Shown here piece by piece: positions 17,234-40,697 of a stretch of 56,301 nt of DNA (position 1 is the first letter of the stretch; every line of letters begins with the position of its first letter). The DNA is from an uncultured Ignavibacteriales bacterium. GTDB taxonomy: Bacteria > Zixibacteria > MSB-5A5 > GN15 > FEB-12. Made by a program: the position numbers and the translations under genes. The stretch lies in the NCBI GenBank assembly GCA_964464605.1, contig CAYXJN010000010.1:1-56301 (forward strand), given 5' to 3'. The notes beneath the pieces were generated by a model, which saw only the letters and a program-made list of their open reading frames with translations, was not told where the DNA came from and made no database searches.

Positions 17234-18861
17234 GTTTTCACTTTCTTCGGTTGCTCAGCGGTCGATGGAATAAGCATGGTGTCGTAATCATACGGACCAT
17301 GATCAAATACCGGTGTCTCAATAAAGTTTTCCGGCGGAGGCGGTGAAGAGGTCGCCCATTCAAGGGTAAGCGCACCCCACGGATTATCACCGGCCGGACG
17401 ACCTTTGAAGATCGCATGAATCAGCGTGACACCCATAATGATAAACCCAAGCGCCATAATCCAAGAGCCGTACGTTGAAAAGGCGTGCAGCGGCTGATAT
17501 TGATCGAGATACGTGTAGTAACGGCGCGGCATACCCTGTGAGCCAAGTATGAACTGGGTGAAGAAAGTAACGTTGAAGCCGATGAACACCAAAACAGCGC
17601 TTGTGCCGCCCCAGAATTCATTGTACATCCTTCCCCAAATTTTCGGCCACCAGTAAAACAAGCCGCCGAAGAAAGCCATAACGGTTCCACCGAGCATTAC
17701 ATAGTGGAAGTGTGAGACGACATAATAAGTGTCGTGCAAATGCACGTCGAGTGACAGCGTTCCGAGCACAATGCCGGTAAAGCCGCCGATACAGAAGAGA
17801 ATCAGGAATGATATGGTCCATAACATCGGCGTCGAAAGGGAAATCGACCCTTTATACATGGTCGCAACCCAGTTGAAGACCTTAATACCGGACGGTATGC
17901 CAACAAAGAAGGTTAGAAATGAAAATACGACCGCGGCAAGTTCCGACTGGCCGGACACAAACATGTGGTGTCCCCAAACTAAGAATGACACCAGTGCAAT
18001 ACCGAGCGATGAATACCCGATAGCTCGGTAACCAAAAATTTTCTTGTGGGAAAACACGGCTATTAATTCGCTGATAATGGCCATCCCCGGAAGAATCATG
18101 ATATACACCGCCGGATGGGAATAGAACCAGAAGAAGTGCTGATACAATACCGGATCACCACCGAGCGCGGGGTCAAAAATACCGATACCGAACGCCCTCT
18201 CCATACTAAGCAATATCAGCGTGATACCAATAACCGGAGTCGCCAGCACCTGAATAAGGGCGGTAGCGTACATACCCCACACAAACAGCGGCATATTGAA
18301 CCAGGTCATTCCCGGTGCACGCAATTTGTGAATGGTCACAATGAAATTAAGACCGGTAAAAATAGATGAAAAGCCAAGAATCACTACACCGAGCGTCATA
18401 GAGATAACCGAGGTACTTGTTACCGTACTGTATGGCGTGTAGAAAGTCCAGCCGGTGTCGGCGGCATTAGTAACCATCGAATAAACCGTGAATGATGCCC
18501 CGATTACATATATATACCAACTGGCCAGATTAAGTCGAGGGAAGGCTACATCCTTTGCCCCGATCATCAGCGGAAGCACAAAATTACCGAGTGCCGCCGG
18601 GATCGAGGGGATAATAAACAAAAAGACCATCACCGCGCCGTGCAGCGTGAACAACTGATTGTATTGATCGGCGGTAAAGAGCTGCTGGCCGGGATGCAAA
18701 AGTTCCAGACGGACTAAAATCGCAAAGGTGCCGCCCAACAGAAACGCTCCCATGATGAGGAACAGATACATTATCCCGATCCGCTTGTGATCAAGCGTAC
18801 CAAGCCAGGACATGATTCCTTTCGGCTCGGTCAGATAATTACGTGTGGGTATGGTACTCAT
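17230..18861 (-). CDS. ctaD: Cytochrome c oxidase subunit I (A2-type)
   Basis: [20 protein letters not shown] (the YS motif marks A2 type), VWGHH and HFHY. Start placed at ATG 18861. Confidence 0.97.
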
Positions 18862-33487: not shown

Positions 33488-34555
33488 CTATTTCTGCAAA
33501 CGCAAAGTTTGCGCGATTTTGAGAATCCGGTCGACATGATCATGTACCGATAGATGATTTCTTTGCGCGAAATCCGAGCTCGGCAGAATCGGATTGGCGA
33601 TCATTGCTTTAATCGCGGTTACCCAATCAGCAACTTCGAAACTTGAAACGACTTTTCCTTCTTTCTCCGTTACTAATTCCTGCGCTCCGACCATATGGGA
33701 AATCATTACCGGTGTTCCGCACAAAATCGCTTCGCTTACCACCTGGCCATACGGCTCATAACGGGCAGGAAGAATAAAAATATCAGAAGCGGCATACAAA
33801 CACTCGGTATCAGTCACAAACCCGACATACCGGACATTCGATGGAGCATCTTTGACCTCATTCGGTCCGGCAACTAACAACTCAACTGGTATCGATTGGT
33901 TTTGCAGCTCCTGAAACACCTTTAGCAAAAGCTGCAATCCTTTTCGCCAATGAGAAACCGAGACAAAAGAAAAGACAGTTGTATTCGGTTTACAACCGAA
34001 TCGTTGGCGGTATTGCTGCTTGTTTGCTTGTAATCCGGAGTGAAACCGCGCGGTATCTGTTGGTGGATAGAGTAATTCTATTTTGTTTGCAGGAACTTGG
34101 TAATACGTAATGAGTTCTTCCTTCATCATTCGTGATGCTGCCAGTACGACTTTCGATTTATGAAACGCCCGCCGTTCGCTGAGAATGTCGAGACGGTCTT
34201 TTATGGTCCATCGCTCTTTATTGGTGGCGTGCAAAAACCCCAAATGATTCCCCGGCGCCAAGACAGCATCCTGATTCGATGTTTTCGTCAGCGACAACAC
34301 AAAATCGAATTTTTCCTTCTTAATGATTTTCTTTAACCGCCAATCGAGCCAGAAATCACGAAAGAGTTTCGGAATAAAACGCATATCAACACGAATGATG
34401 CGTACATCACTGGGTAATTGCACATCCGCCCCGACTTTGTAGGTAATAACCGTTACCGAATGCCCCAGCTCCCGCATCCGCGCGATGTAGGAAAACAGCC
34501 GTGTCTCCAACCCGCCTAACTGATAAAGTCGATTATGAACTAAGGCAATGCGCAT
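33488..34555 (-). CDS. Glycosyltransferase family 4 (WaaG/RfaG-like)
   Basis: GGLE, RKGL and YEPYGQVVSEA (EX7E motif). Confidence 0.9.
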   Translation of the reverse strand: MRIALVHNRLYQLGGLETRLFSYIARMRELGHSVTVITYKVGADVQLPSDVRIIRVDMRFIPKLFRDFWLDWRLKKIIKKEKFDFVLSLTKTSNQDAVLAPGNHLGFLHATNKERWTIKDRLDILSERRAFHKSKVVLAASRMMKEELITYYQVPANKIELLYPPTDTARFHSGLQANKQQYRQRFGCKPNTTVFSFVSVSHWRKGLQLLLKVFQELQNQSIPVELLVAGPNEVKDAPSNVRYVGFVTDTECLYAASDIFILPARYEPYGQVVSEAILCGTPVMISHMVGAQELVTEKEGKVVSSFEVADWVTAIKAMIANPILPSSDFAQRNHLSVHDHVDRILKIAQTLRLQK

Positions 34556-35826
34556 TAGTCTTCGCTGAACGGTTTTTTGGACGAGAATTGTCTCTTGCTC
34601 GCATTGTAAATCATGGGTGTCAATGCCGCTAATAAAATGTGTTCAAGCAAAATCAATAGCCCAGATCCAATACTAACAGCAAGTTTAGGATCAGCAAGTT
34701 TGGGAATACTTGAAAAAGGTAAATACGTCAATAGCACTCTAAAAAAATCTGGAACGGTCAGATCAGCAGAAACTACACCTTCACCCAAAGGAATTTTCAC
34801 TTTCATCAAAGTCAAAACAAATGAAAACAGAAATCCTATCAGTAAAAACCAGAGAATCGACTTTAATAGAGACGTATCATAACTTGATATTAGCTGGTGT
34901 AACCAATTGAGAAATTTTTTACTCCTGCTTAACCCGGGGCTGTATCTTTGACAAATCATATGTCTCACGTAGGCGCGATCTGCTCGGGCATAATCCATAT
35001 GCTTTAAAAAGTAACGTTCAAGAAATTTATATGCCTTAACTACATTCAGAGGATTGATACTATGACCAGATACTTCCTGCCTATGTTTAATTAACTTTTC
35101 ATCAATAATCTGTTCCGGCCATTCTTCAATTTCTTCAAACTTTGTTTTCTCAAAATTCAGAAAACTAAACAGAAGACCTGATAAGTCGGCCCCCTTAAAT
35201 TCCGTAACACCTTTGCTAAAATCAATGATAGATGGGCACAAAAATTGGGTTTGAGAAAATGTAATATCTGTCCCAATACGTTCCTTTCTAGTAAATTCCA
35301 GATTGGCATTTTGCTTTTCAAAAAAGATAGCTTTTTTGAAAGAAAATTGATCGCCCAAAGAGGCTTCTTTAAAAGAAGCACCTGATAAAAATTTCGCGTT
35401 CTCAAAACGAACACTACCTTGAAAATTGACAGATTCAAAATTTGCAAACTTCCTGAAAGTTGCATTTGAGAAATCTGCTAATTCTCGTATTTGTAAACCA
35501 CGAAATAAGACGAGGTCATTGAATTCACATTGTGAAAATAACGCTCTTGCAAATAGAGCTCCATCAAATGCTATTGGTTTATCGAAGTGCTTCCCTTTGA
35601 AATAACCGCCTAAAGTTTGCGGAAAAAACCAGTGGCTAAAATCAATAACAGCCGAATTTTGAATTTCATCGTCTATCAACGGCATCATACCATCGACATT
35701 TTTGGTATGGCTTTTTTGATGGCCTATACACCTAAGTTCTGATTCGATTGGCCATTTACAATGCTTTTTTTCAACTCTTCCGTCTGGCCAAACTAACTCC
35801 CACTCAACAGTACATGTTTCCGCCAT
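34555..35826 (-). CDS. Pentapeptide-repeat protein with C-terminal membrane domain (AT-rich)
   Basis: A.F..A.F repeats (ADFSNATF, ANFESVNF, VRFENAKF, ASFKEASL) followed by TM segments. Confidence 0.75.
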   Translation of the reverse strand: MAETCTVEWELVWPDGRVEKKHCKWPIESELRCIGHQKSHTKNVDGMMPLIDDEIQNSAVIDFSHWFFPQTLGGYFKGKHFDKPIAFDGALFARALFSQCEFNDLVLFRGLQIRELADFSNATFRKFANFESVNFQGSVRFENAKFLSGASFKEASLGDQFSFKKAIFFEKQNANLEFTRKERIGTDITFSQTQFLCPSIIDFSKGVTEFKGADLSGLLFSFLNFEKTKFEEIEEWPEQIIDEKLIKHRQEVSGHSINPLNVVKAYKFLERYFLKHMDYARADRAYVRHMICQRYSPGLSRSKKFLNWLHQLISSYDTSLLKSILWFLLIGFLFSFVLTLMKVKIPLGEGVVSADLTVPDFFRVLLTYLPFSSIPKLADPKLAVSIGSGLLILLEHILLAALTPMIYNASKRQFSSKKPFSED

Positions 35827-35847
35827 AATACCCCTTAATCATTTCCC

Positions 35848-37245
35848 TTAAAACTTCGCCCAGCCTGGAACACGGGGGAACGGAAGGACATCGCGGATGT
35901 TCGCCATGCCGGTGATATACATCATCGCCCGTTCAAAGCCCAAGCCAAAACCTGAGTGCGGCATGCTGCCGTATCTGCGAATATCCAGATACCAATAATA
36001 CGCATCTAAGTTGGTCATCCCTTTTTGTTTCATCCGCTCGACCAATACGTCGTAGCGTTCTTCACGTTGTGATCCGCCAATAATTTCTCCCACACGCGGC
36101 ACTAACACGTCCATTGCGCGGACTGTTTTGCCGTCATCATTAATGCGCATATAGAAGGATTTGATTTCTTCCGGATAATCATACACAATCACCGGCTTGT
36201 TAAAGAGCTTCTCGGTCAAAAAGCGCTCATGCTCGGTTTGCATATCAAGCCCCCACTTGACCGGATAATCGAATTTCTGTCCTGACTTTTCCAGCAGCTT
36301 GATCGCTTCGCTGTACGATACCCGTTCAAAGTTTGAATTAACTACTCCTTCCAGCATACCTCGCACTTCTTTATCCACCCACTGGGCGAAGAAGTCCATA
36401 TCATCACCGCATTTTTCAAGCGCAAACTTGAACAGGTATTTCAAAAAGTCTTCCGCTAAATCCATGTTGTCTTCAAGCTCCGCCCACATCATTTCCGGCT
36501 CGATCATCCAAAACTCGGAGGCATGCCTCGCGGTGTTGGAGTTTTCAGCGCGGAAGGTCGGTCCGAACGTGTAAATATCCCCAAGCGCGCTTGAGACCAA
36601 CTCCCCTTCTAATTGTCCGGAAACAGTCAGGTATGCTTCGGCGCCGAAGAAATCGGATTCCCAATCGATCTTTCCCTCTTTTTTGGGAACATTGTGAAAA
36701 TCGAAACAGGAAACACGAAACAGATCACCGGCTCCTTCACAGTCAGATGTCGAAACGATCGGCGTATGCGCATACACAAAGCCGCGTTCCTGAAAGTAGG
36801 TGTGAATCGCGTAGGAGAGCTGGGAACGCATCCGGTTTATCGCGCCAAACGTATTCGTGCGCGGACGTAAATGCGCGATATCCCGCAGGAATTCGTAACT
36901 GTGCCGTTTTTTTTGAAGCGGGTAGCTGGCATCCGCCGCGCCGATTAAGGACAATGAACTCACAGCAACTTCATATTTCTGCCCTTGTCCCTGCGAGAGG
37001 ATCAGTTTTCCGGCCATGCGCACCGACGCACCGGTAAGAATCTTATCCAAATCCGGATGCGATTCCGGATTGCTCAACACTCCCTGAATGCTTTTGAAAC
37101 AGGAACCGTCGTTGACTTCAACAAATGCGACCTCTTTGCTGACTCGCACGGTTCGAACCAGACCGAGGATGATAACCTCAGTGTTAACAGGAACTGAATC
37201 TTCAACCAGTATTTTGGAAATTTTTGTTCGGTGCTTGTAATCCAT
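35848..37245 (-). CDS. asnS: Asparagine--tRNA ligase
   Basis: YPLQKK, HLRPRTN, DCEGAG, LTVSGQL, FRAENSNT.RH and GFGLGFER. ATG 37245 has a GGAG SD. Confidence 0.97.
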   Translation of the reverse strand: MDYKHRTKISKILVEDSVPVNTEVIILGLVRTVRVSKEVAFVEVNDGSCFKSIQGVLSNPESHPDLDKILTGASVRMAGKLILSQGQGQKYEVAVSSLSLIGAADASYPLQKKRHSYEFLRDIAHLRPRTNTFGAINRMRSQLSYAIHTYFQERGFVYAHTPIVSTSDCEGAGDLFRVSCFDFHNVPKKEGKIDWESDFFGAEAYLTVSGQLEGELVSSALGDIYTFGPTFRAENSNTARHASEFWMIEPEMMWAELEDNMDLAEDFLKYLFKFALEKCGDDMDFFAQWVDKEVRGMLEGVVNSNFERVSYSEAIKLLEKSGQKFDYPVKWGLDMQTEHERFLTEKLFNKPVIVYDYPEEIKSFYMRINDDGKTVRAMDVLVPRVGEIIGGSQREERYDVLVERMKQKGMTNLDAYYWYLDIRRYGSMPHSGFGLGFERAMMYITGMANIRDVLPFPRVPGWAKF

Positions 37246-37473
37246 CGACTGCTCCAGCGCTATCTTGGGGTGTAACCTGTCATTGCGCATAATAAACGTG
37301 TCATATGCGCGCCTGGCAAGCGACAGTCACATGCGCCAAAATTGACGAAAATTAACAAAACGGGTGAAACTTTACGTAAGAAAAACTGGTATAAGAGTTA
37401 GAACAAACGAAGAAAACAGTAGAGCCGTTGTCTTCGAGAGTTTTTTAGTTCCCTACCTATCACCTATCATCAG

Positions 37474-37511
37474 TGATGTCCGGTTCTCTGAGCCGGGCAT
37501 CATTATTTTTT
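37474..37511 (+). terminator. Orphan plus-strand intrinsic terminator
   Basis: 13-bp stem TGATGTCCGGTTC/GAGCCGGGCATCA with G-U pairs valid on +, followed by TTATTTTTT. Confidence 0.55.
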
Positions 37512-37558
37512 GTCTGCATGTTCGGGCTGAAACGTACAGCTGGCACGGGGAGATTTTA

Positions 37559-37630
37559 TGAGGGCGGAAGGTATCGAACCTTCGACCACTTGCTTAAAAG
37601 GCAAATGCTCTACCACTGAGCTACGCCCCC
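37559..37630 (-). tRNA. tRNA-Lys(UUU), CCA not encoded
   Basis: Cloverleaf GGGGGCG TA GCTC AGTGGTA GAGC A TTTGC CTTTTAA GCAAG TGGTC GAAGG TTCGATA CCTTC CGCCCTC A. Upstream TTGACT-N17-CATTTT at 37711-37683. Confidence 0.95.
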
Positions 37631-37821
37631 ATGTGCCAGAGGGCATATTTGAACGCTACCGAGCGTCCTAATTGAGGTCGCTAAAATGAGTCCTTAGGCG
37701 GGCTAAGTCAACCGGTTTTTCGCCTATTTCCTTATCCGACTGTATAGTAACGGATTTTCTGCAACCTGCCGATATTCTTAAGGTCTGTCCAACAGCCAAA
37801 TCACAGGGAAAAGGGATAGCA

Positions 37822-39936
37822 ATGGTCGAACAAAATAAGCAGGGTGAAGTTTTTGTAACACCGACAGCCGAGGATTTAGCGGCACTCGCCATGCGCAGCA
37901 TGGAAACCTACAATAAGGTGGTTTGCCTGGTGGATGCCCGCCAGATCGACCTGCCGCTTGTGTATGTCAACCGGGCGTTTGAAACATTAACTGGTTATCC
38001 CGCCAAAGAAGTTCTCGGAAAAAATATGCGGTTTTTACAAAAACAGGATCGCCCGCAGTCCGGCCATATGCCACTTTCCCACGCCCTCAAAACAGACCAG
38101 CCATGCACGGTAATATTCCGGAACTATAAAAAGGATGGGACATTATTCTGGAATGAAATTTCTATCAATCCGCTTTTTGATGAATCCGGAGCACTGACGC
38201 ATTATTTGGGCGTATTGCATGACGTAACCGAACGGAAACAGATCGAATCATTCCAAAGTATTCTTTTTCATATCTACCAAAGCTCGGCAATCGCGCAAAC
38301 GCTGGAAGATTTTTTGTATCTGTTTAACCAGCCGATAGACCACGCTATTCCCGGCAAAGAATTATTCATGGCCACCTACGATCCGGTTACGCAGCGCTAT
38401 TCCGTTCCCGGCTTCGAGCCGCATGGAGACCCGTTTTGGGAATGGAACGGCGAACGGCTTAAGAAAACATTGATTGATTATGTGCGCCGCAGCGGCAAAC
38501 CGTTTATTGCAACAGAAGAAACACAACGGCAATTAGCGGCACACGGAGAAATTCAGCTAACCGAATCCGTTCCCCCGATCTGGCTGGGTGTGCCGATCAT
38601 TCACCATGAAACGCTGTACGGCGTACTGGTTGTGCAAAATCTGAAGATGCCGCTTTTATTCGCTACGCAAAACTTGCCGCTGATTCATACCGCCGCCGAA
38701 CATCTGGCGGTCGCCGTTAGGCAAAAAGTAGCACATGAAGAACTTGAACTGGCACGACAAACGGCCGAAGGTGCAGTGCAGGCTAAAAGCGTGTTTTTGG
38801 CGAATATGAGCCATGAATTCAGAACACCGCTCAATTCGATTATTGGGTTTTCCGATCTGCTCTTGCAACCGGGGATGGACGCCTTAACGGAACGGCAGCA
38901 ATCGTATCTTCGAACTGTATCAAAAAGTGGGAAACATCTGCTGACGCTTATCAACACGATTCTTGATCTGGCGAAACTTGAATCCGGAAAAACGTCGCTT
39001 GAAATGCGGGAGCTTTTCCTTGCCGCCTTAGTCAGAGAAGCATGTGAAATTGTCCGTGCTGATTCAGACAAAAAACGATTGAGTTTCGTTGCCGATGTTG
39101 ATCCGCAAATCCGCGTTACCGCGGACCGGCGGGCGTTATTACAGGTCCTGTTGAATCTCATGGCGAATGCAATCAAATTTACGCCGGAAGGGGGAAAAAT
39201 CGGCGTGACGGCGACACCGCAGGGAACCGATGTTGCAATCTGTGTTTGGGATACCGGAATCGGTATTGCGCCTGAAGATTGCGAGCGGATTTTCGATTCA
39301 TTCCAACAGGCCGATAACTCATTCACTCGTCAATATCAGGGCACCGGACTTGGGCTGACCATTTCAAAGAGCTTAGTTGAATTGCAGGGTGGAGCGATTT
39401 GCGTGAAAAGCCGAGTGGGTGAAGGAAGCAAATTTATTTTCACGCTGCAGGCATCAATTCAGTCTCGGACAGGTGAAGAATCACCACAGGAGATCACCAA
39501 ACATTCACGTAAAACGCAAACGGAAGCACTCACCGTTTTAGTCATTGACGATGAACCGCTGAACCGAATGCTCTCACGGGAAGTATTAGAGCGGGCGAAC
39601 TGGAAAGTTCATGAAGCTTCTGACGGCGTAGAGGGAATACGCACCACAGAAACCAAAAATCCCGATATCATTCTTTGCGATATTCAGATGCCGATTATGG
39701 ATGGTGTTACCGTTTTGCAGCAGCTTCGTTTACAACCGGAGCATGACCACAGGACAATCATTGCGCTTACCGCGTACGCCATGACCGGAGACGCCGAAGC
39801 GCTCTTGGAAAAAGGATTCGACGGATATTTAAGCAAGCCGATAAACATTCCTACCTTTGTCGATGATATTAAGAAAATTCATCAACAGCGTCTCGCCTCA
39901 CTTTCCACTCCGGATAAAAAACTTGAACGTGTATGA
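37822..39936 (+). CDS. Hybrid sensor histidine kinase (LOV-like PAS, GAF, HisKA, HATPase, REC)
   Basis: GKNMRFLQ and NYKKDG.LFWN PAS motifs; FLANMSHEFRTPL; NAIKFT, DTGIGI, GTGLGL; REC with DIQMP and KP. Confidence 0.93.
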   Translation: MVEQNKQGEVFVTPTAEDLAALAMRSMETYNKVVCLVDARQIDLPLVYVNRAFETLTGYPAKEVLGKNMRFLQKQDRPQSGHMPLSHALKTDQPCTVIFRNYKKDGTLFWNEISINPLFDESGALTHYLGVLHDVTERKQIESFQSILFHIYQSSAIAQTLEDFLYLFNQPIDHAIPGKELFMATYDPVTQRYSVPGFEPHGDPFWEWNGERLKKTLIDYVRRSGKPFIATEETQRQLAAHGEIQLTESVPPIWLGVPIIHHETLYGVLVVQNLKMPLLFATQNLPLIHTAAEHLAVAVRQKVAHEELELARQTAEGAVQAKSVFLANMSHEFRTPLNSIIGFSDLLLQPGMDALTERQQSYLRTVSKSGKHLLTLINTILDLAKLESGKTSLEMRELFLAALVREACEIVRADSDKKRLSFVADVDPQIRVTADRRALLQVLLNLMANAIKFTPEGGKIGVTATPQGTDVAICVWDTGIGIAPEDCERIFDSFQQADNSFTRQYQGTGLGLTISKSLVELQGGAICVKSRVGEGSKFIFTLQASIQSRTGEESPQEITKHSRKTQTEALTVLVIDDEPLNRMLSREVLERANWKVHEASDGVEGIRTTETKNPDIILCDIQMPIMDGVTVLQQLRLQPEHDHRTIIALTAYAMTGDAEALLEKGFDGYLSKPINIPTFVDDIKKIHQQRLASLSTPDKKLERV

Positions 39937-40697
39937 AAATACTGGTAGTCGATGATGCTCCCGCTGATTTACTGCTCTTGATGGACATTCTGTCGCTGCA
40001 TGGATATACAGCGGTGGAAGCATCCTCGGTCGCTAAAGCCGAACGGATTCTCCATGAAGATCCGGGTATTGGATTAGTGCTGCTTGATTTGATGATGCCG
40101 AAAGAAGACGGTTTTGCTTTTCTGCAATTCTGGCGGCGGCACCCGATTCTTAACAATATTCCGGTCATTGTTTGTTCCGCAGCCGGAGACAGTGAGTCGG
40201 TGCTTCAGGCGAACAAAGCAGGTGCGGTTGATTTCCTGGTAAAACCGGTAACAACCGAAGTGGTTATCGCTAAAATTCAATCGGTGCTTTCCCGTGTACA
40301 GGTACGGGGATGCGTTTTGGTGGCAGACAGTGAACAGGTGCTGAGCAGTTTGATCGGTGAAATCGTTCGCCGTGCAGGATATCGCTGTTTATCGGCTTCC
40401 ACCGGACAGGAAATATTAGAAACGCTCGGCAAAGAAACAGTCAATTTGATTATCACTGATAGCCAGCTATCGGATATGGGTGGGAAAAATTTGGTAATGG
40501 CGATTCACAAACAGGCACCGAATATCCCGGTTATTTTTACCGGAAACATCCAAAAAACGAGCGTATCAGGCGCCCGATCGCAGGGAGCGGTAGATATTAT
40601 TTTCAAACCGACGACCAATCTTGACATCTTAAGCAAATTAGCTAAGTATCTCCCGAAAGAGATTCGACCGCAGGAAACACCCGTACCTGACAAATAA
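39933..40697 (+). CDS. Tandem (dual) REC response regulator
   Basis: ILVVDD..LDLMMP..KP, then VLVADSE..ITD..KP; no output domain; overlaps the kinase stop. Confidence 0.88.
   Translation: MKILVVDDAPADLLLLMDILSLHGYTAVEASSVAKAERILHEDPGIGLVLLDLMMPKEDGFAFLQFWRRHPILNNIPVIVCSAAGDSESVLQANKAGAVDFLVKPVTTEVVIAKIQSVLSRVQVRGCVLVADSEQVLSSLIGEIVRRAGYRCLSASTGQEILETLGKETVNLIITDSQLSDMGGKNLVMAIHKQAPNIPVIFTGNIQKTSVSGARSQGAVDIIFKPTTNLDILSKLAKYLPKEIRPQETPVPDK

Follow-up and report, generated by a model that had tools for sequence, protein, structure and literature searches.

LOV domains are the main blue-light optogenetic tools, and their mechanism is usually explained through a cysteine that forms an adduct with flavin and a glutamine that acts as a switch. 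In Avena LOV2 (AsLOV2) the conserved residues are G447, N449, C450, R451, F452, L453, Q454, N482, N492 and Q513, among them the adduct Cys (C450) and the active-site Gln (Q513) (PMC11151830; papers cited by such numbers are quoted throughout from excerpts). Laboratory experiments show that LOV domains tolerate the loss of either residue, and of both only with a weak response left. Here we analyse a hybrid sensor histidine kinase encoded in a 56,301-nucleotide stretch of DNA (the window) from an uncultured Ignavibacteriales bacterium, placed in Zixibacteria by GTDB (GenBank assembly GCA_964464605.1, contig CAYXJN010000010.1, positions 1 to 56,301). Its N-terminal LOV domain carries Met69 at the Cys position and Leu132 at the Gln position. 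We consider it possible, with a likelihood just short of even, that this is a derived LOV domain that would still bind flavin and signal by flavin reduction, through blue light, redox state or both.

The closest described systems by architecture are the bacterial LOV histidine kinases (Brucella LOV-HK, the engineered YF1 and SB2F1, and the short LOV proteins of Pseudomonas as sensor module). The window LOV aligns with them gap-free at 30-43% identity, and in both an N-terminal LOV is placed to drive a HisKA/HATPase kinase. Unlike them, it has Met for the adduct Cys and Leu for the Gln, together with unusual residues H82, S86 and F99; its LOV is separated by a GAF domain from the dimerisation and histidine phosphotransfer (DHp) region, and a receiver is fused.

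Natural Cys-less domains are represented by the LOV* proteins of Yee et al. 2015, for example the halobacterial BAT-LOV with Pro. Like the window LOV, they are without the adduct Cys and keep most conserved residues; they are proposed to act by flavin reduction, signalling through the neutral semiquinone (PMC4682037). Of the roughly 70 natural entries without the Cys, those whose replacement is named in the excerpts have Ala, His or Pro; Met is not named there (PMC4682037). Those proteins also keep the Gln, and the order PAS_9-GAF-HisKA-HATPase_c-Response_reg is absent from the architectures in the portion of their supplement available (PMC4682037). By the filter of that study (G59, N61, R63, F64, L65, Q66, N94, N104 and Q123 of YtvA), the window LOV has 8 of 9 residues, with only the Gln missing; the paper words its rule as 'at least 9 of the other 10' and lists nine.

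Loss of the Gln characterises the LOV-deltaQ receptors of Dietler et al. 2022 (for example the M. loti LOV-GGDEF-EAL protein). About 350 natural cases have a hydrophobic residue at this site, mostly Leu or Ile, as here; a blue-light response is reported for one of them, and Q513L keeps light responses (PMC9098866). On our own reading of the excerpts, these receptors still have the Cys, with which they form the thioadduct, unlike the window LOV, in which Met69 accompanies Leu132. The same Cys-to-Met change was engineered in the phot LOV1 domain of C. reinhardtii: C57M folds, still binds flavin mononucleotide (FMN), and forms an irreversible methionyl-flavin adduct radical (PMC12232321). Both Cys and Gln are absent from AsLOV2 C450A:Q513L and C450A:Q513D, and such a double variant is still weakly light-responsive, the latter giving a small response only. 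Unlike the window LOV, all of these are laboratory constructs, and the C57M chemistry is irreversible. A reading of the DNA made earlier, from the sequence alone, had named as established that Cys-less and Gln-less LOV domains can signal and that a Cys-to-Met LOV1 forms a flavin adduct; each of these statements is found in print in the papers above.

A LOV homologue with methionine and leucine at the active site

The kinase gene, its domains and the gene that follows are laid out below (aa, amino acids).

37822..39936, + strand: hybrid sensor histidine kinase gene, 704 aa, LOV(PAS_9)-GAF-HisKA-HATPase_c-REC (open reading frame list, Pfam)
37876..38265, + strand: LOV module including flanking helices, with A'alpha at about aa 19-29, PAS core at aa 33-137, the 'DIT-type' exit motif D134-V135-T136 and J-alpha at about aa 136-148 (AlphaFold2 model, Foldseek, phmmer against PDB)
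aa 43-137: PAS_9 domain (alignment to the Pfam model, E 4.3e-21)
38026-38028, + strand: codon 69, ATG, Met at the adduct-Cys position (sequence; aligned under the Cys of solved LOVs)
38065..38118, + strand: F-alpha helix and G-beta stretch with the further unusual pocket residues H82, S86 and F99 (column frequencies)
38215-38217, + strand: codon 132, TTG, Leu at the active-site Gln position (sequence, alignment)
38452..38718, + strand: GAF domain, aa 211-299 (Pfam E 8e-6, above cut-off)
38785..39453, + strand: kinase core, HisKA and HATPase_c (Pfam)
aa 322-389: HisKA (Pfam E 1.6e-20), with H331 in SHEFRTPLN
aa 435-544: HATPase_c (Pfam E 2.6e-28)
39535..39867, + strand: fused receiver (Response_reg), aa 572-682 (Pfam E 1.7e-26)
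39933..40697, + strand: dual-receiver protein of 254 aa without output domain (open reading frame list; Pfam Response_reg in two stretches, E 1.3e-41)

In the translation we read G66-K67-N68-M69-R70-F71-L72-Q73, N101, N111 and L132. The spacings of +33, +43 and +64 from N449 of AsLOV2 are the same as those from N68 to N101, N111 and L132. Eight of the ten published conserved residues are kept (G66, N68, R70, F71, L72, Q73, N101 and N111), and the two replaced are the adduct Cys (by Met69) and the active-site Gln (by Leu132). Against PDB chains, phmmer aligns aa 34-137 gap-free to LOV domains, with 150 chains at E≤0.001 and the LOV-activated diguanylate cyclase 8c05_A as the best match (E 2e-29); in these alignments M69 lies under Cys and L132 under Gln. 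An AlphaFold2 model of aa 16-149 (pLDDT 91.8; model residue i is aa i+15) has a PAS core lying between an N-terminal helix (model residues 4-14) and a C-terminal J-alpha-like helix (121-133). The top Foldseek matches with this model are all LOV structures, with a TM-score of about 0.89 to LOV crystals. The N-terminal PAS domain is a genuine LOV homologue, its similarity far above chance. The gap-free AsLOV2 numbering of the sequence-only reading is borne out by the equal spacings and the phmmer alignment; its placing of N68, R70, Q73, N101 and N111 at flavin-contact positions, and of Met69 and Leu132 at the two active-site positions, agrees with the direct count, the codons and the alignment.

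Behind the LOV domain the motifs of a hybrid two-component histidine kinase are intact: the phospho-accepting H331, a HATPase_c domain and a fused receiver with an acceptor Asp, all Pfam domains scoring above their cut-offs. The receiver residues D576, D577, D620, T650 and K672, read from the orthologue alignment, are present. The ATG of the dual-receiver gene overlaps the kinase stop codon by 4 nucleotides (ATGA), which suggests translational coupling, probably of both genes as a single unit. The GAF-kinase-REC and dual-REC arrangement proposed from sequence alone is thus confirmed by Pfam, whereas its description as a phosphorelay is not: Pfam detects no Hpt domain in the kinase or the neighbouring dual-receiver protein. 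The genome's single Hpt match lies in a 571-aa frame on another contig (C6). A strict His-Asp-His-Asp phosphorelay at this locus is not supported.

The same substitutions in other LOV domains

The frequency of these substitutions was tallied on 1152 PAS-domain matches from 388 proteins, of which 129 were kept as having N68, R70, Q73, N101 and N111; the sample is non-random, as proteins were chosen by similarity to this query. A search of a representative library, dominated by multi-PAS giants with summed scores, was used only as a source of LOV domains for the tally. Position 69 is Cys in 117 of the 129 domains, Leu in 3, Met in 3, Phe in 2, and Ser, Gly, Trp or Ala in 1 each. At position 132 there are 84 Gln, 22 Leu, 5 Ile and others. 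Leu at the Gln site, at 22/129, is therefore ordinary in natural LOVs and unremarkable alone, in agreement with the published Gln-less LOVs. Met at the Cys site is rare yet recurrent.

LOV domains with Met at this position (Met-LOVs) were also sought in one genome per prokaryotic species with the back-translated pattern N-M-R-[hydrophobic]-[hydrophobic]-Q-x27-N-x9-N. The scan gave at least 119 loci, and at least 12 of them are true LOV homologues (tblastn E 3e-20 or better), a ratio to be read as a lower bound and not as a frequency. Among the matches listed, the loci are L129 in the archaeon Haloarchaeobius baliensis, L099 and L081 in two Methylocystis, L083 in Verrucomicrobia UBA1319, L100 in a metagenome-assembled genome (MAG) of Deferrimicrobiaceae, and L033, L041, L078, L092, L097, L109 and L125; the hosts also include an uncultured gammaproteobacterium, Steroidobacteraceae, an alphaproteobacterium, Azospirillum, Pirellulales, Armatimonadota and Nitrospirota. 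These Met-LOVs span at least nine named lineages with otherwise canonical pockets, and P0129 and P0372 add to them from outside the scan. The outputs of those listed comprise GGDEF-EAL, SpoIIE phosphatase and HisKA_3 kinases. The Gln is also absent in at least five of them (replaced by Cys, His, Leu, Leu and Ala), and P0129 combines Met with Ile. We found no natural Met-LOV named in the literature, and the motif word gave 0 matches, in a search thin on subscription journals.

A tree of LOV domains (135 rows, 111 columns) has SH-aLRT values below 80 on 69 of its 132 inner branches. Met rows are scattered on it, with 8 changes on the maximum-likelihood (ML) tree, and five of them form a clade with SH-aLRT 100. 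A single origin of Met-LOVs is compatible with the strongly supported branches. The window LOV pairs with P0001 (SH-aLRT 99), and the nearest others are Cys-type domains and P0129. By this nesting, the window Met-LOV is therefore derived from ordinary LOVs and is not a relic. Separately, L100 of the Deferrimicrobiaceae MAG, L081 and L099 of the Methylocystis MAGs, and L092 sit on very short branches in one clade (SH-aLRT 100), under records labelled as different phyla; this could be a recent transfer or MAG mis-binning.

Several other pocket positions, compared here with the 117 Cys-type LOVs of the tally, are unusual in the window LOV.

38065-38067, + strand: H82, where Val, Leu or Ile stand in 89%
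38077-38079, + strand: S86, where Arg stands in 62% and Ser in 2%
38116-38118, + strand: F99, where Leu stands in 71% and Phe in 1%
V33: Gly in 58%
I42: Pro in 62%
K74: Gly in 79%

The sequence-only reading made no mention of H82, S86 and F99. With the AsLOV2 offset they correspond to V463, R467 and L480. The second of these, R467, presumably binds the flavin phosphate. V463 and L480 are inward-facing flavin neighbours (PMC11151830). Among the matches listed, the 14 other Met-LOVs have Arg (one Ala) at position 86 and Leu or Ile at 99; at 82, 13 have an aliphatic residue and one, P0129, an Arg.

Conservation and genomic setting

Only two orthologues are returned by a whole-protein search: P0001, of 704 aa and 95% identical, and P0002, 85% identical, with its N-terminus missing. 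P0001 carries NMRFLQ, H82, S86, F99 and L132; P0002 carries L99 and L132, and its M69 region is missing. Every readable key residue is kept in both. A LOV+GAF scan of metagenome contigs found no orthologue and gave four canonical Cys LOVs instead. The survey of homologues reveals no random variation at the two active-site positions, M69 being kept in P0001, the only one in which it is readable, and L132 in both.

The LOV core differs from P0001 at 6 of 105 positions (5.7%), all conservatively, next to 2-4.5% for the GAF, catalytic (CA) and REC domains. From P0002 it differs at 6 of 46 positions (13%), with 11-18% in the helical linker 138-210, GAF, CA and REC. The 546-571 linker differs by 19% (P0001) and 60% (P0002), the N-terminal cap by 25% (P0001 only), and the DHp region by 0/90 and 1/90 positions. 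Judged by these alignments, whose depth is shallow, divergence in the LOV core is similar to that in the other folded domains, and there is no sign of decay.

The ATG codon of Met69 differs from the Cys codons TGT and TGC at all three bases. Being three changes apart, the codon must therefore have passed via other non-Cys residues, with the polar flavin contacts intact. Such a path, together with intact buried polar contacts, argues for continued selection on the pocket, and more strongly than the conservation in the orthologues. A sequencing error or a recent mutation as the source of M69 is ruled out by the same three-base difference and by the same residue in P0001.

In the genome, which looks complete at 2.8 Mb, the LOV domain of the window is the only LOV-like one. 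A FAD_binding_7 domain of the photolyase/cryptochrome family, in a 503-aa frame (G000:C1:162367-162930, + strand), marks the sole other candidate flavin-based light-responsive protein found in the genome among those looked for; domain searches found no BLUF, PHY or cytochrome bd. Heme-copper oxidase subunit I is encoded twice, by COX1 at 17458-18783 of the window (- strand, E 2.7e-150) and by a second gene on contig C5. Light and oxygen are relevant to the organism, because a photolyase-type gene and two heme-copper oxidases are present.

At the level of the phylum, 26 of 285 genomes matched the LOV query at E≤1e-15. Of the 19 other loci that we fetched, 3 proved to be canonical Cys/Gln LOVs with about 40% identity, and a different PAS class accounts for the other 16. 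LOVs are rare in the phylum, and the LOV-kinase gene is without close kin there. The commonest PAS relatives in the phylum (L138-L153) belong to that other class, with G-x-N-P-R-I-L-K, Tyr82, Trp86, Glu111 and Lys132, and often lie in multi-PAS frames of 1100-2100 aa.

The genes around the kinase and dual-receiver genes are housekeeping genes and give no clue to function.

37558-37631, opposite strand: tRNA-Lys(UUU), upstream of the kinase
Upstream of the kinase, opposite strand: class II tRNA-synt_2 gene (Pfam), which from this match we take to be of the asparaginyl-tRNA synthetase (AsnRS) type
Downstream of the dual-receiver gene: genes for an FKBP isomerase and adenylosuccinate synthetase

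Elsewhere in this region, a hairpin with a 15-bp stem followed by a T-run lies at 37472-37504 (+ strand), between the start of the AsnRS-type gene and tRNA-Lys(UUU), where no + strand gene ends. A 423-aa protein with Pentapeptide_3 repeats (34555-35826, - strand) adjoins a GT4 glycosyltransferase, and its C-terminal part looks hydrophobic by eye. G+C is lower around it, at 0.405 for 34001-36000 against about 0.48 elsewhere.

Proposed signalling by flavin reduction, and alternatives

In the mechanism that we tentatively favour, the flavin is retained and, with the adduct Cys and the active-site Gln lost, no cysteinyl adduct would form. The signal event would be reduction of the flavin with protonation of N5. 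Blue light could photoreduce the flavin, possibly with the thioether of Met69 or an external reductant as the donor; alternatively, the flavin could be reduced chemically in a reducing cell. Without the Gln, the change may pass through water and the β-sheet to the D134-V135-T136 exit motif, then to the J-alpha helix, and onward via the GAF domain into the DHp coiled coil, where it would shift the kinase/phosphatase balance. The H331 kinase would deliver phosphate to the fused receiver (D620) and to the coupled dual-receiver protein. The homology and fold, the identity of the residues, the intact motifs of kinase and receiver and the operon layout are observed directly; that flavin is bound, which stimulus acts, in which direction it regulates and which proteins exchange phosphate we infer. 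With a Met close by, the midpoint potential of the flavin goes up by as much as 40 mV (PMC11151830).

A number of points weigh against this mechanism. The flavin of this LOV is a prediction rather than a demonstrated cofactor, and the extra pocket changes are the main reason for doubting it: H82, S86 and F99, as well as K74 and V33, are rare in the pocket, and the first three are missing from the other Met-LOVs listed. AsLOV2 C450A and C450A:Q513L yield little semiquinone, and LovK C73A of E. litoralis is blind to light. BAT-LOV photoreduces inefficiently and slowly and binds flavin weakly (PMC4682037), and a Met placed inside LOV lowers photoactivation (PMC11151830). Among the non-Cys domains of the tally, Met does not stand out, with 3 cases beside 3 of Leu and 2 of Phe, and may itself not be special. 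Conservation is shallow and gives weak evidence, with two orthologues at 95% and 85%, one of them cut at the N-terminus. No orthologue was found in the genomes of 40 relatives, where matches were to the kinase core only, and only 3 canonical LOVs were seen among the 284 other genomes of the phylum, seven weaker matches being unexamined.

The pocket changes could also be read as those of a degenerate LOV, a PAS domain without flavin that acts in dimerisation or as a helical linker, or that has some unrelated small molecule as its ligand, while the GAF domain or another input senses; we regard this as doubtful, though it is the main rival. Many PAS domains carry no cofactor. Five pocket-facing positions are off the Cys-type consensus at once (M69, H82, S86, F99 and L132), M69 and F99 being bulkier than usual, and S86 removes the second of the phosphate-binding Arg residues. 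The family has very few members, all in one lineage, and with the Gln missing from the residues listed by Yee et al. the domain is borderline for their filter or fails it. Yet the buried polar residues N68, R70, Q73, N101 and N111, which have no obvious role without flavin, are kept, and the LOV core is without relaxed constraint. The unusual residues are also less telling one by one: position 86 is other than Arg in 38% of Cys-type LOVs, K74 is found in canonical Cys LOVs, F99 is Leu in the orthologue P0002, and LOV1 C57M binds FMN (PMC12232321).

If flavin is bound, the chemistry could be of another kind. Blue light might generate a covalent methionyl-flavin adduct or radical, long-lived or irreversible, as the signalling state, a dose-integrating 'fuse' reset only by protein turnover. 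LOV1 C57M gives just such an irreversible, air-stable FMN-Met radical adduct in blue light (PMC12232321), the Met here is at exactly the same position, and Met-LOVs recur in nature, with one clade retaining the Met. An irreversible sensor is a costly design, however; Cys gives way to Leu or Phe about as often as to Met, on a poorly resolved ML tree the Met rows are dispersed with 8 changes, and photochemistry of a natural Met-LOV was not found in the literature, so that we hold this route to be improbable. We give a similarly low likelihood to a pure dark redox sensor, in which flavin is bound, light is irrelevant in the habitat and the domain reports redox potential as the PAS-FAD domains of NifL or Aer do. 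The organism is zixibacterial (all 11 organism-named PurA matches in the top 120 are Zixibacteria/Zixiibacteriota or GN15, at 72-76% identity), which would suit such a sensor. Yee et al. suggest redox-active flavoproteins as the ancestors of LOVs, chemical reduction elicits a response from BAT-LOV (PMC4682037), and the redox potential E0 rises with a Met near the flavin (PMC11151830). The photolyase-family gene is kept, however, so the organism meets light, and the domain falls within the Cys-type photoreceptor LOVs and not with PAS domains of the NifL or Aer type. A dark redox sensor also overlaps with signalling by flavin reduction, our favoured mechanism, rather than excluding it.

The Cys-to-Met change, its pairing with the loss of the Gln and the scattered natural Met-LOVs are the interesting parts of this locus. 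The observation made from sequence alone was right, and its interpretation is plausible but unproven. Dietler et al. have proposed a Cys- and Gln-free 'primordial LOV' (PMC9098866). More speculatively, and rather unlikely in our estimate, natural Met-LOVs might be an unrecognised, recurrent class of bacterial and archaeal flavin sensors, in which methionine-assisted photoreduction or a methionyl-flavin adduct takes the place of the cysteinyl adduct. In that case the zixibacterial kinase would be a functioning counterpart, in nature, of the Cys/Gln-free LOV, signalling purely by flavin reduction and a water relay. Even as such a counterpart it would, by its place on the tree, be a secondary derivative and not a relic.

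If the domain is cofactor-free, it represents ordinary PAS-domain decay. A natural kinase without both residues would be a ready test case, and so would the Met-LOVs scattered over at least nine named lineages among the matches listed. Such proteins could reveal their cellular role, as light sensor, redox sensor or both, and whether methionyl-flavin chemistry like that of C57M occurs in nature. Redox-gated or light-integrating optogenetic switches could be built with parts from a Met-LOV, if one is functional.

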